64,000 nucleotides of DNA, taken from positions 38,254,001-38,318,000 of the forward strand of contig NC_079170.1 in the NCBI RefSeq assembly GCF_947568905.1. The letters run 5' to 3'. The DNA comes from Ostrea edulis (lineage: Eukaryota). Below, in pieces: positions 29,535 through 44,977 of this stretch. Both the position numbers and the translations under genes were made by a program. Within the stretch, counting starts at the first letter, position 1, and each line of letters opens with the position of its first letter. Below the pieces are notes generated by a model. The model did no database searches, was not told where the DNA came from, and saw nothing but the letters and a program-made list of their open reading frames with translations.

Positions 29535-30065
29535 ATGACGGACTACGAATCACTACATAACCCGGGTACACCACGTTATGCTCTACTGTCAGATCGAGTA
29601 GCGTCGTTTGAAAATGCTCCCGAACACTTGCAGAAGCTATTACCTACCATTGCAGAAGCGGGATACTTTTACAAAGGGTACGGGGATAACACGTGCTGTT
29701 TTTATTGCAACTTTGGACTTCACCATTGGGGAGCTGTCGACAATCCTTGGATACAACATGCTTATTGGTATCCTCACTGTCCTTACCTGAAGTGTAATAA
29801 GGGTAAACAATGGGTACGTCAAATGTTCGACGCCGTTAGCCGAATGCGAGACACGGGGAAGAATTGGGGAGACTTGTCTGTAGACAGTGTGGAGAATCCG
29901 GCTACGACGACGGAGAAATGTCATCTGTGTTTAGAACGAGACTTGAGAATAGCTTTTTTACCTTGTGGTCATTTATGTACTTGTGCTATATGTGCTACGG
30001 GACTGAAATAATGTCCTATTTGTAGACATAGTGTTGAGCAAGCTGTACGTATTTTTATTTGTTAA
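29535..30065 (+). pseudogene. iap: IAP-like BIR plus RING protein; RING truncated by in-frame TAA at 30009-30011
   Basis: Exact BIR zinc motif CX2CX16HX6C; RING CHLC...PCGHLCTCAIC, and after the stop the frame continues CPICRHSVEQAVRIFIC to TAA at 30063-30065. Confidence 0.92.
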
Positions 30066-30105
30066 TAAATATGTATGATCCCATGAACTTGTGTCATTTA
30101 TCAAG

Positions 30106-30744
30106 ATGTATACCTACGAGACACTTGAGCCTTTTCAGTTGAAACATGAATTTACCATGACGGTGGCTGGACCCTCTAAATCGGGTAAAACAGAATTTGT
30201 GAAGCAACTGGTACAAAATACGCAGTGGATTGCACCGCCTCCCGAAAAGATAGTATGGTGTTATCGAGAATGGCAGTCCGCGTACGAATCCTTACAGGAC
30301 AAGGTCACTTTTATCCGCAATATACCTCAAGACGATGAGCAGATAGTGGCGGATCTCAGTACGTGTCATCTACTCATTTTTGATGATATGATGGGAGGTA
30401 AAGCCATCGAATCGATTGTCGACTGGTTTACGCGCAAAGCGCATCATCGAAATACCAGTGTCATTTATATCACACAAAATCTGTTTGATCGAGCAGTACA
30501 ACATCGTACCATCAGTCTGAATGCTCACTATCTTGTGCTGTTTAAAAATCCTCGAGATAAATCACAGATTGGGGTGTTAAGTCGGCAATTACAAATGCCG
30601 CATTTACTTCCAGCCTATGAGGACGCCACCCGTGTACCTCACGGGTATTTACTAGTGGACTTGAGTCCTCAGACGTCGGACGATTTAAGATTAAGAAGTC
30701 AACTCTTTACCAACTTGGCTGTGCACATGCCCCCGAGAGTATAA
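30106..30744 (+). CDS. ATP: Genome packaging ATPase (A32/FtsK-like)
   Basis: Walker A GPSKSGKT, Walker B LLIFDDM, then HHRNTSVIYITQN; first in-frame ATG at 30106 (track starts at GTG 30091). Confidence 0.95.
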   Translation: MYTYETLEPFQLKHEFTMTVAGPSKSGKTEFVKQLVQNTQWIAPPPEKIVWCYREWQSAYESLQDKVTFIRNIPQDDEQIVADLSTCHLLIFDDMMGGKAIESIVDWFTRKAHHRNTSVIYITQNLFDRAVQHRTISLNAHYLVLFKNPRDKSQIGVLSRQLQMPHLLPAYEDATRVPHGYLLVDLSPQTSDDLRLRSQLFTNLAVHMPPRV

Positions 30745-30793
30745 ATAATGTCACATCATGGGCAGGTGTATCATTCGAAAGACAGTCTTCACC

Positions 30794-31666
30794 ATGGGTA
30801 GACCTTCCGCGAAGAGTAAATTAGTCAAAACGTTACGCCGTTTACAACGGGAACGGGATCCCGTTCAACGGAGCCATCTCATTGAATTAGGACGTAGAGC
30901 CTTACTCAACTGGTTTGCGATGGGAGCTCGAAATTTATTGCGAGGCGTCTTACCAGGCAATAAAATCACTCAGCGGTTCATTCAATCCCATCGCCAAGAC
31001 TTGAGTGTCATTGCCGATAAGAAGTCCAATGAAGAAGAGCGTAAAAAAGCCATTTTGAAACGAGGAGGCGCTGGATTCTTAGGAGGGACCATTATCCGTC
31101 ATTTATTCAAATGGGAAACAGGTCGTAAGCCCCGTGGGGGACAACCCAAGAAAACCAAGAAACCACGGGCTAAGAAAGCTAAAAAATCACCTCAGAGAAT
31201 TCCTAAACTCATTATTCGCTTACCTAAGAAGACACCTAAGAAGTCCCCTAAGAAGTCCCCTAAGAAGACACCTCTCAGGATGAAGAATCCGTTTCCCAAT
31301 TGGGCTCCAAAGAAAACCCCTCTCATTGTGAAGATGCCGTTTCCCAAAGCCACTCCCCCCAAGGTCACTAAAACGTTAGCCAATCTGAAAGCCGGATTAG
31401 CTCAAAAGAAAATGGAACGACCCATGCATGGGCCTATAGGAAGTTCCAGAACCAGTGATACTGCTCTACCGAGTTTTGCTCATACCTTTGGAAGCATGAA
31501 ATTTCAACCCTTAACCACCTCAACACCGGTTCAGGTGCAAAAGAAATATAAATGTAAATTTTGCCCTCTGGTCTTCAATGCGAGAGAGAACCGCAATCGT
31601 CACGAAGAGACCGTCCATCACAAGCGTTTTGATCCTAAACATCCGAGTGCCATTGTCCTGGACTAG
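30794..31666 (+). CDS. Basic core-like protein with SPKK/TPKK repeats and a C-terminal C2H2 finger
   Basis: TATAAATA at 30740-30747 favours ATG 30794 (accATGg) over 30758; KKTPKKSPKKSPKKTP; YKCKFC...F......RHEETVH. Confidence 0.8.
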   Translation: MGRPSAKSKLVKTLRRLQRERDPVQRSHLIELGRRALLNWFAMGARNLLRGVLPGNKITQRFIQSHRQDLSVIADKKSNEEERKKAILKRGGAGFLGGTIIRHLFKWETGRKPRGGQPKKTKKPRAKKAKKSPQRIPKLIIRLPKKTPKKSPKKSPKKTPLRMKNPFPNWAPKKTPLIVKMPFPKATPPKVTKTLANLKAGLAQKKMERPMHGPIGSSRTSDTALPSFAHTFGSMKFQPLTTSTPVQVQKKYKCKFCPLVFNARENRNRHEETVHHKRFDPKHPSAIVLD

Positions 31667-31706
31667 GTATAAAAAGGAGGGGGAAGGGGCCCCACCCTTC
31701 ATTACC

Positions 31707-32036
31707 ATGGCTCATACGAAGAAGTGTGAATGTCGATTACGACCTCATTTACCGCTCTTGCAGACGTTAGCGGCTCCTCACTATTCCAGCAAATTAAAGA
31801 CAGAGGTGTTGAAACATTGTTCCAATGACTGCATTTTAAAGATTTGTGAGATTGTGTACAATCTATTAAAAGGGGTGATTCCTCTCAATCCTACTCAGAA
31901 GCGACAACTGGGTCGAAAGAAACACATCTTAAGACGCTTAGTCCGCCCTCAACCTGTGAAAAAACGACGAGGTATACTCATTCACCAAAAAGGATTGGGT
32001 TCGTTTGTGTGTGGCAAGATTTGTAAGAAATCATGA
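31707..32036 (+). CDS. Conserved Polinton small basic protein (109 aa)
   Basis: TATAAAAA at 31668-31675, ATG 31707; ICEIVYNLLKGVIPL...ILRRL...ILIHQKGLG pattern seen in Polinton core-like proteins (recognised by eye). Confidence 0.8.
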   Translation: MAHTKKCECRLRPHLPLLQTLAAPHYSSKLKTEVLKHCSNDCILKICEIVYNLLKGVIPLNPTQKRQLGRKKHILRRLVRPQPVKKRRGILIHQKGLGSFVCGKICKKS

Positions 32037-43325: not shown

Positions 43326-43832
43326 ATGGATACACGGAGAATTTTAAGAGCGAGACGCTGCCGCCAGGGAATACAATCAGTGGAGAATTTAACCATAGTG
43401 GAAGATTATGTAGACGAGATGGAGATCTGGGACAATTTAGTACAGAGATGTCGCCATCGATTACGCTGGGGGCGATCTAAAAATTGGTGTTTTGACTATG
43501 TATTGCGGTCACATGAAACAGTGGAGGATATTTGCCTACGATTAAGTGACATGTACCTGAAAAATTCCCCCCTCATACAGTACATGATTTACCAGTTTTA
43601 CACGTTATTGAACGGCACTCAAAAAGTATCGGGATTTATTCGACTGGAGAAACCACGTTACCGAAGAAGTGTATGGGTATTGTTTTGGGATGCACACTGG
43701 ATGTGGGAAACCGTCGAAGAGATACGTTTCCCCGGGAGAAGAGCTCGACAATTAGTACAACACATTATATCCGAAGATCATGACTTACACGTGTATATAG
43801 AAGAACCTGCGTATGAAGCCGGCCATTTTTAA
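43326..43832 (+). CDS. Protein with a degenerate CRESS-virus Rep (HUH) endonuclease-like domain (168 aa)
   Basis: SKNWCF ... IQYMIYQ ... NGTQKVSGFIRLEKPR ... V..LF.DAHW follows the circo/nanovirus Rep N-domain pattern; HUH and YxxK catalytic residues are absent. Confidence 0.62.
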   Translation: MDTRRILRARRCRQGIQSVENLTIVEDYVDEMEIWDNLVQRCRHRLRWGRSKNWCFDYVLRSHETVEDICLRLSDMYLKNSPLIQYMIYQFYTLLNGTQKVSGFIRLEKPRYRRSVWVLFWDAHWMWETVEEIRFPGRRARQLVQHIISEDHDLHVYIEEPAYEAGHF

Positions 43833-43847
43833 AAATAAAAACTTCAT

Positions 43848-43871
43848 GCACAGCCCTTTTTAGGGCTACTT
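43848..43871 (+). terminator. Possible histone-type stem-loop
   Basis: AGCCCT TTTT AGGGCT AC at 43852-43869, 19 nt after the Rep-like stop; AATAAA at 43835 precedes it; no clear downstream element. Confidence 0.5.
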
Positions 43872-43920
43872 TAAACATCAATATAAGTTCCATTCCACTA
43901 AAGTCAATGTGTACCAATGT

Positions 43921-43992
43921 GCACTAGCACGCGCTGGTCGCGAGAAACCGGCTTTTCAAGTTCAATTAGGGCACTAGCACGCGCTGGTCGCG
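43921..43992. repeat. 22-bp direct repeat, 50-bp period, upstream of the zinc-knuckle gene
   Basis: GCACTAGCACGCGCTGGTCGCG at 43921-43942 and 43971-43992. Confidence 0.9.
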
Positions 43993-44153
43993 CGATGTTC
44001 TAGCTGAAACCGGTTTTTCCAGAAAAAGATGATGCAACCACGTGCTCCCCACGTGCCCCCCCACGAGACAGAATAGTCTAGACATTTTGCTGGCTATAAA
44101 AGCGGAGCCCCAGTGTCAGTCCTCATTCGATCTTCAATCACCTTCCAGAAGAC

Positions 44154-44977
44154 ATGGCTCAGAAACAACTAGAATTTGTGGACAAAGCTCAGAAGAAAAT
44201 AGATCAGCTGGTACAGAAACAGATGGGACCACAGAAAGACTACATTGAACTGAAGAAAGCTAAGACTGAGATCAGAAGATTGAACTGGGGAAGACCTCGA
44301 ACTTGTTGCTCACGACTCCATACCCCATTGCTCGACAAGAGAAGATGGCCCAGACCTCGGATTACCTCCCTAGCCAGAATCCGACAGACCCGGGATTAGG
44401 CTTCTATTTTCCCGATTCACAGGACGCTACGGGACTGGAACTGGGCCTCTACAACGCTCAGAATGACCCTCCGACCATGAACAAAGAAGACTTTGCGATC
44501 ATTACCACGACACTAGACGGGATCGTTAACCGCATTAATGTGCTGAGTAATGAGATTGGAAATCATACCACAGTCCTACTGAAGAAGCTGGAAGAGCTGA
44601 CTTCTAAAAAACCTAGGAAGGAATACACTCCAGATTACACTGCTAACCCGTGCTACACGTGTGGAGAAACAGGACATTGGTCGCCGAATTGCCCACAGAA
44701 AACAGATTATCCGCAGACCAGTAAGAAATCGTGGTCGGCAGATTCTCAACAGACCAGCAAGAAAACCAAACAAAAGGATCCTTGCTACAAATGCGGAAAA
44801 ATAGGACACTGGATTAGTGAGTGTCCAGAAGAACAACTGGAAATAGATGCGATGATTGGGCCCGTACCTGGCTCAAAATCCCCTGTGAAGAGAGAATACA
44901 CACCGTTAGAGATGTGGAATCCCCCCGCACCTACTGAAGAACGGCCAAAAAAGAAGAAGAAACTCAGCAGAAAGTAA
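44154..44977 (+). CDS. Coiled-coil plus two CCHC zinc-knuckle protein (possibly frameshifted near 44269, or starting at ATG 44345)
   Basis: CYTCGETGHWSPNC and CYKCGKIGHWISEC in ORF 44303-44977; TATAAAA at ~44095 precedes ATG 44154 in another frame; basic C-terminal tail. Confidence 0.75.

Follow-up and report, generated by a model that had tools for sequence, protein, structure and literature searches.

A recent, defective oyster Polinton with candidate poly(A) and histone-type stem-loop gene classes

The 64-kb stretch of DNA analysed here (contig NC_079170.1, positions 38,254,001 to 38,318,000; hereafter the window, in whose positions all coordinates are given) carries a complete Polinton at 25126-45364, 20,239 nucleotides (nt) long. 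Our analysis suggests, with a probability of roughly 0.6, that this element is a recent, now defective oyster Polinton provirus with two classes of gene in its accessory block: a class whose transcripts would end in poly(A), and a class whose transcripts would end in a histone-type hairpin, processed by SLBP (stem-loop binding protein) together with U7 snRNP (a small nuclear ribonucleoprotein). Expression, 3' processing, timing and all protein activities we infer from sequence. The initial annotation had read the accessory genes as a multi-pronged counter-defence arsenal; taken alone, that reading is partly known and partly overstated, and the histone-type ends are a feature that it missed.

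Histone-type stem-loops in the accessory block

At curated scores, Rfam gives three matches in the whole window: two tRNA-like matches in the host flank and a histone 3' stem-loop (Histone3, RF00032) at 40206-40251 (-). This stem-loop 1 scores 40.2 bits (E 2.3e-8 for the whole window), above the gathering score of 34, and follows the RING gene (40270-41058, -), whose proline-rich product of 262 amino acids (aa) has a single PPxY motif and, at its C-terminus, a probable RING. Its stem occupies 40231-40246, and a purine-rich downstream element lies at 40210-40223. Stem-loop 2 (38628-38673, -; stem 38653-38668, purine-rich element 38631-38644) follows open reading frame (ORF) 99, ORF99 (38753-39052, -), whose product is acidic and proline-rich with a basic tail; this stem-loop, at 32.0 bits (E 8.6e-6), falls short of the gathering score. 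Stem-loop 3 (43847-43893, +; stem 43852-43867) follows the 168-aa Rep-like gene (43326-43832, +) with 22.9 bits (E 0.022), and lacks the downstream element that the other two share. A permissive Rfam scan covered the Polinton only and returned five rows, of which we attribute SNORD38 (E 3.2) and IS009 (E 2.4) to chance.

All three hairpins are on the sense strand, their stems starting 24 nt (RING gene), 85 nt (ORF99) and 20 nt (Rep-like gene) after the stop codon. Each has a perfectly paired 6-bp stem, in which the second pair is G-C, and a 4-nt loop with U at position 3. The G-C second pair and the loop-position-3 U define the histone motif according to bioRxiv 10.64898/2026.10.14.759114, and bivalve histone mRNAs are described as having the same hairpin and purine-rich element (PMC6210712). 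The 14-nt purine-rich element is identical downstream of stem-loops 1 and 2, which are its only two exact matches in 64 kb. In addition, a 29-nt box upstream of ORF99 (39116-39144, -) is identical at 27 of 29 positions to a box upstream of the RING gene (41148-41176, -); it occurs in only these two places in 64 kb, and BLASTP finds no similarity between the RING and ORF99 proteins.

The other right-arm units have an AATAAA signal 14-91 nt after the stop codon, and many right-arm genes, apparently small and unspliced, have their own TATA box. In the scheme that we propose, four tandem proteins with a putative Bcl-2 fold (41794-43213, -) and a PP1-eIF2alpha adaptor (41612-41959, -) would use one poly(A) signal, at 41598, and a Cys-rich ORF of 133 aa (39230-39631, +) and a macrodomain of the Appr-1-p/phage type (39622-40119, +) would use another, at 40156. 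The stem-loop class would comprise the RING protein, ORF99 and, more weakly, the Rep-like protein. For these genes host SLBP would bind the hairpin, the U7 snRNP would pair with the downstream purine-rich element and CPSF73 would cut just past the stem. The resulting mRNAs, without poly(A), would accumulate in S phase and then be cleared, so that the stem-loop regulators would be present while the host cell replicates its DNA, the phase in which a DNA virus that works in the nucleus and supplies a polymerase and an integrase of its own would have most to gain. The poly(A) genes, meanwhile, would keep the infected cell alive and translating. The origin-binding likeness of the Rep-like protein would fit the S-phase class. 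For the wider proposition, that an animal DNA virus lineage adopted the SLBP/U7 pathway for non-histone genes (an E3 ligase and an acidic regulator, perhaps joined by an origin-binding protein, which a common promoter box and a common stem-loop/downstream element would restrict to S phase and free from the poly(A) machinery) and kept a separate poly(A) class (the Bcl-2-like array, the PP1 adaptor, the macrodomain and an IAP) for the survival of the cell, we see about even odds.

The layout of these genes also bears on the main rival, compact termination at converging genes, in which SLBP does bind the hairpins, yet their main role is to terminate transcripts compactly at head-to-head junctions, or to allow either a stem-loop or a poly(A) end, without S-phase timing. 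Stem-loops 1 and 2 each face the poly(A) signal of a converging gene (38576 versus 38653, and 40156 versus 40231), and because hairpin and signal are about 75 nt apart the mature converging RNAs need not overlap. The AATAAA downstream of the RING gene would suit such dual ends, and stem-loop and poly(A) signals are described as coexisting at the histone loci of some lineages. Stem-loop 3, however, is not at a converging junction, and the shared 29-nt upstream box points to co-regulation rather than to termination alone. We consider this explanation unlikely.

Several observations weigh against two classes of 3' end. Only one of the three hairpins passes the Rfam gathering score, and the hairpin evidence is the sequence of one Polinton copy, in which stem-loops 1 and 2 may stem from one duplication and would then not be independent. 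A consensus hairpin pattern speaks for the hairpins, with three matches in the Polinton, where 1000 Markov controls average 0.026 and none reaches three; this pattern was drawn up after the hairpins had been seen, which makes the Rfam scores the fairer test. The pattern also matches once in the host flank at 14668-14683, a candidate that we rejected, its stem being weak, its loop position 3 a C and no Rfam match there reaching the gathering score. The spacing between the stop codon and the point where the 26-nt motif starts is about 19, 80 and 15 nt for stem-loops 1, 2 and 3, all outside the norm of 25-60 nt given in bioRxiv 10.64898/2026.10.14.759114; shorter spacers are described for the cnidarian Hydractinia (PMC5011920). 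Poly(A) ends are possible for two of the genes, since an AATAAA stands at 43834, right after the stop of the Rep-like gene and ahead of stem-loop 3, and another 133 nt after the stop of the RING gene. Finally, a contig scan reduced 84 candidate stretches to two Polinton loci, both distant, L001 (1-11141) and L002 (1-21300), and their 32,441 nt hold no Histone3 match; L001 ends inside its major capsid protein (MCP) gene and has no right arm, and the right arm of L002 holds few long ORFs.

Some of these points would suit another origin, in which the hairpins are functionless remnants of captured host histone 3' ends that were copied by local duplication: two of the three fall under the Rfam cut-off, L002 has none, and the present copy is decaying. 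Against such an origin, none of 132 right-arm reading frames of at least 30 aa matches a histone, the three stems are perfectly paired although the neighbouring sequences and proteins differ, and each hairpin is in the sense orientation just past a stop codon. We regard an origin as remnants as quite unlikely, and take two functional classes of 3' end as the preferred reading in what follows.

The PP1 adaptor and the Bcl-2-like array

On its sequence matches, the adaptor is the best-supported new gene of the block. It resembles DP71L and GADD34 and would be 72 aa long if translated from the ATG at 41830, or 115 aa if its start is at 41959. Pfam PP1c_bdg is matched with E 7.4e-6 (26.2 bits, cut-off 26.1), and further matches are to DP71L of African swine fever virus (ASFV; E 8.4e-6) and to PPP1R15B. 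The protein contains RVTF and nine of the ten specified positions of the eIF2alpha motif, the strict pattern failing at one, and both key leucines are aligned; the motif and the two critical leucines are those given in PMC5346070. The adaptor most likely recruits PP1 and thereby promotes dephosphorylation of eIF2alpha, in agreement with the PP1/eIF2alpha role assigned initially.

The adaptor is tied to the neighbouring array. The last array gene overlaps it in another frame (41612-42099, -), and a relative, P0012, encodes an array domain and an adaptor in one chain, which links the two within the family. Among relatives the junction varies: P0012 is an in-frame fusion, P0029 enters the RVxF motif and then leaves it, and others stop nearby. 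Either the overlap is variable or a fusion has been split in some copies.

The array consists of four head-to-tail paralogues of 101, 115, 117 and 119 aa with 24-38% identity in pairwise BLASTP. A structure was predicted for the 119-aa member only, giving a model with a predicted local distance difference test (pLDDT) score of 76 and five predicted helices. Compared with 48,161 PDB chains, this model has members of the Bcl-2 family as its top 13 matches, the best being ASFV A179L (Z 7.8, root-mean-square deviation 3.3, 105 residues aligned), with vaccinia F1L also among the leaders; the first unrelated chain follows at Z 6.4. Foldseek names Bcl-2 proteins in 43 of 45 PDB rows, and among its viral rows Bcl2 of a lancelet adintovirus is third of 50 (E 0.66). 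The modelled member also has a weak Pfam Bcl-2 match (E 0.007). Counting against the assignment are that this Pfam match is found in only one of 20 members of the array family, that the top Z of 7.8 falls below the level under which matches of helical proteins call for caution, and that no Foldseek match reaches E<=0.001. Sequence searches with the array gave no Bcl-2 match in the PDB and no match in the Atlas. The model nevertheless makes a Bcl-2-like fold likely, and this strengthens the anti-apoptosis reading of what had initially been noted as an expanded paralogue array.

A C-terminal membrane anchor was not found, the top 19-residue hydropathy being 0.71-1.33 across the four proteins. 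Such an anchor is not required for all viral Bcl-2 members, and anchor-less poxviral proteins of this fold block NF-kB/IRF3 signalling instead of apoptosis. The array proteins, if folded as modelled, most likely act with the IAP to delay cell death or damp immune signalling.

Homologues of the array comprise 29 representative matches, of which 16 were aligned; five long ones (448-2718 aa) and eight that are short or partial were left out. Relatives known as full-length proteins share 84-92% identity with the array genes and 85% with the Rep-like gene, so the accessory block is a trait of the family and not of a single copy. Between the array and the Rep-like gene is a divergent promoter region (43214-43325) that contains a short repeat with two CACGTG E-boxes. 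None of 14 accessory ORFs has the canonical LxCxE motif of an 'Oncoid'; one IxCxE occurs at the end of an array gene.

IAP, OTU, macrodomain and probable RING

The remaining items of the proposed arsenal differ in how well they hold. The IAP (29535-30065, +; one BIR and a RING) matches Pfam BIR with E 1.2e-15 (58.3 bits, cut-off 22.9) and RING with E 4.8e-12 when its in-frame stop is read through as X. This stop, at 30009-30011, lies within the RING and precedes the last CxxC, so the assignment as an IAP stands and the encoded protein is truncated, without a complete C-terminal RING. No IAP match was found in L001 or L002.

The OTU is part of the protein-primed DNA polymerase B (pPolB). Its Cys motif (about 26179) and His motif (about 26506) lie inside the pPolB gene, outside the region that the initial annotation had covered, and both are retained in the pPolBs of L001 and L002, two Polintons without these accessory genes. 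PMC11161782 reports OTU domains in the pPolBs of polintons, virophages and plasmids, and proposes that they release the terminal protein by cleavage. An OTU serving as an accessory or counter-defence weapon, as had been proposed for the OTU-bearing PolB, is therefore rejected; the domain is a conserved part of pPolB and not a lineage-specific counter-defence.

For the macrodomain, PHROG_335 is matched with E 4e-9. Eight phage records match, six of them over at least 80% of the query and four labelled macro or Appr-1-p; three weak matches were found in the PDB (E 0.012-0.78) and none in Pfam or NCBIfam. Full-length homology thus places the protein among macrodomains, as had been annotated, and its nearest matches are Appr-1-p-type macrodomains of phages and macrodomains of bacteria. 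To our knowledge, anti-interferon activity has been shown for the MacroD enzymes of RNA viruses and not for the Appr-1-p-type class.

The RING gene encodes four CxxC pairs, with Gln in the place of the His of aligned RINGs. It has no Pfam match and 18 PDB matches, 15 of which are chains of TRIM, MEX3C, PML, NOT4 or Mdm2; none is significant for a RING, the RING matches ranging from E 0.36 to 4, and this lack of significance counts against the assignment. We consider a C-terminal RING probable from the CxxC pairs and the weak TRIM, MEX3C and Mdm2 matches.

The six-item list thus survives in part. The IAP, the macrodomain, the adaptor, the array and the probable RING do occur in one element, four of the six items lie right of the protease as had been stated (the IAP and the OTU are in the left arm), and the OTU drops out as a core domain. 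The claim had gone further, to six counter-defence functions including the OTU, an active virus, and resident copies that modulate oyster immunity. The presence of the IAP, adaptor, macrodomain and Bcl-2-like array favours this full claim, and viral OTUs can, according to PMC11161782, also act as deubiquitinylases. The OTU, however, belongs to the core of pPolB and is retained by relatives that lack these accessory genes, and both pPolB and the IAP are broken in this copy. An influence of resident copies on host immunity during herpesvirus infection, which had also been suggested, is speculative. We hold the full claim to be very unlikely, and two classes of 3' end to be the better account of the block.

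The Rep-like protein weakly resembles a Rep/origin-binding (HUH) domain. Pfam Viral_Rep is matched with E 0.015, and the Atlas feature score of 0.85 is under the lead level of 0.9. The PDB gave no match, two phage matches are at chance level, one homologue was found among 15 candidates, and the structure model was unusable (pLDDT 39). Just past stem-loop 3, the intergenic stretch 43880-44000 contains a repeated GCACTAGCACGCGCTGGTCGCG unit that may act as a promoter or binding site. ORF99 has two similar acidic Trp motifs, EDWDEEI and ENWDAEL, which to our eyes recall the N-terminus of Vasa/DDX4, and its 3' untranslated region contains a long purine repeat. For the Cys-rich ORF, Pfam, PHROGs, NCBIfam and the PDB gave chance-level matches only.

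Structure and state of the element

The Polinton is bounded by the longest inverted repeat of the window. Its terminal inverted repeats (TIRs; left 25126-25432, +, starting AGTAGT; right 45058-45364, -) are 307 nt each and 100% complementary, giving ends AGTAGT...ACTACT, and the 6-nt target-site duplication GTCATC stands on both sides (25120-25125 and 45365-45370). GC content is 40-56% within the element versus roughly 28-44% in the flanks. The TIRs, (AGT)2 ends and 6-nt duplication fit the definition of Mavericks in PMC8097293. With these ends, pPolB and integrase, and ATPase and protease, the element has the features of Polintons/Mavericks; it is an oyster Polinton (an adintovirus with Alpha-type PolB).

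The core genes are on the plus strand. The pPolB with its N-terminal vOTU (25540-29499) matches Pfam DNA_pol_B_2 (PF03175) with E 1.8e-57. After the IAP come a packaging ATPase (30106-30744; Pfam Pox_A32, E 5.4e-6, above the cut-off; 50% identity to L002) and three ORFs of 302, 152 and 256 aa (30758-32803), of which those of 302 and 256 aa have matching ORFs in L002, with their order preserved. A retrovirus-type integrase with a chromodomain (32785-33870; Pfam rve E 1.6e-11, Chromo E 3.9e-8) is followed by a 95-aa hydrophobic ORF in common with L002 and a 151-aa ORF with no match in L001 or L002 (33837-34572). Next is a gene that we take, from its position, to encode the minor capsid protein (34688-35683); it has 24% identity to the syntenic L002 ORF (E 1e-25) and no library match. 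Two basic ORFs of 47 and 231 aa (35687-36553) probably encode core proteins. The conserved, syntenic gene at 36633-38036 is, we assume, that of the MCP, and the adenain-type maturation protease (38044-38541; AATAAA at 38576) matches Pfam Peptidase_C5 with E 2.9e-4 (21.0 bits, cut-off 21.3). Both the protease and the ATPase match syntenic L002 genes. At the right end, beyond the Rep-like gene, an 81-aa ORF overlaps the gene of a 210-aa protein that carries two CCHC zinc knuckles (44154-44977, +; Pfam zf-CCHC E 6.9e-15; AATAAA at 45068). The 81-aa ORF has a TATA box, and the zinc-knuckle frame, which differs from its own, is open from 44270; the two are possibly one gene split by a frameshift.

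Two further features of the core were noted. The pPolB contains an insert at 27850-28100 (+), between the exonuclease and the palm and in common with L002, which, judged by its motif, may resemble a VSR-like domain; such a domain is described for mollusc pPolBs in PMC10748475. The 152-aa ORF (31578-32036, +) ends soon after a QKG motif, and its syntenic counterpart in L002 runs on into a hydrophobic tail; this pairing was read by eye, and tblastn gave no link.

For the probable MCP, 491 homologues reach E<=1e-50. Among the matches listed, the top named ones are from Ostrea edulis (97%, 'F54H12.2-like', and 88%), then from Saccostrea and Crassostrea near 73%, which identifies the host as an oyster. 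A search of the PDB with the MCP profile found no capsid match, and the libraries gave none for the capsid ORFs. L001 and L002 share the core gene order, with 44% identity in the MCP, and none of the 14 accessory proteins matches either of them. Both are eukaryote-type Polintons on contigs of a bacterial metagenome-assembled genome (Leptonemataceae), most likely through contamination; both contain broken genes, and L002 includes a fragment of a long interspersed nuclear element (LINE).

The pPolB of the oyster copy has an in-frame stop at 28036-28038; read through, it shows 41% identity over 1305 columns with the uninterrupted pPolB of L002. With stops in pPolB and in the RING of the IAP, neither of them mentioned in the initial annotation, the copy cannot replicate alone, and we rejected an autonomous active copy on account of the pPolB stop. 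With two stops over 17,169 coding nt and TIRs free of mismatches, the copy is consistent with about 0.2% neutral divergence since insertion; an equal-rate model at this divergence expects 1.9 stops and gives a 29% chance of no TIR mismatch. The copy is therefore young and non-autonomous. The initial view of a true virus of bivalve cells agrees with the bivalve host (MCP 97% identical to Ostrea edulis), the virus-type gene set and a terminal accessory block that holds candidates against cell death and translational shut-off, and does not extend to this copy, which is defective.

In the host flank, a 625-aa open stretch at 54534-56411 (+) presumably encodes a LINE reverse transcriptase. The tRNA-like Rfam matches (51465-51536, +, and 62032-62102, -) adjoin a pair of 211-nt dispersed repeats (51764-51974 and 61764-61974) and are probably the heads of tRNA-derived short interspersed nuclear elements. 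Tandem arrays lie at 53838-54341 (29-nt unit), 56771-57227 (about 21-22), 58068-58255 (27) and 60544-60927 (16/32).

Novelty and comparison with known systems

We know of no natural non-histone mRNA that uses stem-loop/U7 processing, and PMC5011920 treats this processing as peculiar to replication-dependent histone mRNAs. In the literature listed by our search, which lies largely outside subscription journals, we found no account of viral or Polinton genes with histone-type 3' ends. The word 'histone' is absent from the available text of PMC8097293 and PMC10748475, and histone-type ends are not mentioned in that of PMC13525598, PMC10748475 or bioRxiv 10.1101/2025.04.19.649669. A 2026 survey sought the processing proteins in large DNA viruses and found none; hairpins of viral genes are not addressed in its available part. 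Parts of the accessory set, in contrast, are known. Bcl2 and IAP homologues have been reported in adintoviruses (Starrett et al. 2021, PMC8502044), where IAP labels stand beside the Mytilus and Pinctada maps in a machine-read layout of Fig. S2, and terminal or flanking accessory regions have been described for Mavericks (Barreat & Katzourakis 2021, PMC8097293). The text of the adintovirus supplement (PMC8502044; Fig. S1 is outside this comparison) mentions no macrodomain, GADD34-type adaptor or RING. In the literature searched we found no description of a four-copy Bcl-2-like array in Polintons, and nothing more on further Polinton accessory genes.

If the stem-loop class is real, it would be a new way for a virus to time its expression to the cell cycle, and would offer natural non-histone substrates for the study of SLBP and U7, a pathway held to be histone-specific. 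Its transcripts would also be missed by poly(A)-selected RNA-seq, so that the activity of bivalve Polintons may be undercounted; Polintons are described as abundant in bivalves (bioRxiv 10.1101/2025.04.19.649669). The PP1 adaptor and the Bcl-2-like array, for their part, would add to the case, already argued in print, that animal Polintons were viruses under host defence.

The element as a whole corresponds to the Polintons/Mavericks described as adintoviruses with Alpha PolB (PMC8502044; PMC8097293), with which it shares the (AGT)2 ends, 6-nt duplication, pPolB-OTU, integrase, ATPase, protease and probable capsid genes, and a terminal accessory region. The hairpins correspond to the 3' end of metazoan replication-dependent histone mRNAs (RF00032) in the 6-bp stem, the 4-nt U-rich loop, the G-C second pair and the apparently intronless genes and, in stem-loops 1 and 2, the A-rich 5' flank, the ACC(C)A 3' flank and a candidate purine-rich downstream element. 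They differ in belonging to viral, non-histone genes and in their stop spacing, which departs from the 25-60 nt norm.

Among the accessory proteins, the adaptor shares with ASFV DP71L, herpes simplex virus ICP34.5 and PPP1R15A/B an RVxF motif, an eIF2alpha motif matched at nine of ten positions and the two leucines of the LSAVL stretch, and at 72 aa from the inner ATG it is close in size to the short form of DP71L (70-72 aa). Unlike these proteins, it carries Ser where the eIF2alpha motif calls for Gly/Asn/Leu, and it overlaps an array gene. The modelled array fold is best matched by the all-helical family that includes ASFV A179L, vaccinia F1L, orf virus ORFV125 and the lancelet adintovirus Bcl2, and the array differs from these viral Bcl-2 proteins in having four divergent copies of only 101-119 aa without a membrane anchor.

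A likeness to adenovirus E3/E4 had also been proposed for the accessory region. Library searches of the accessory proteins found no homology to E3/E4 proteins, and the ORFs of the Polinton right arm are small, lie on both strands and use TATA boxes and 3' signals of their own, unlike E3/E4, which are large spliced units. The likeness is thus positional only: in both systems, a linear genome with a protein-primed polymerase carries a terminal block of non-core host-interaction genes near its right end.

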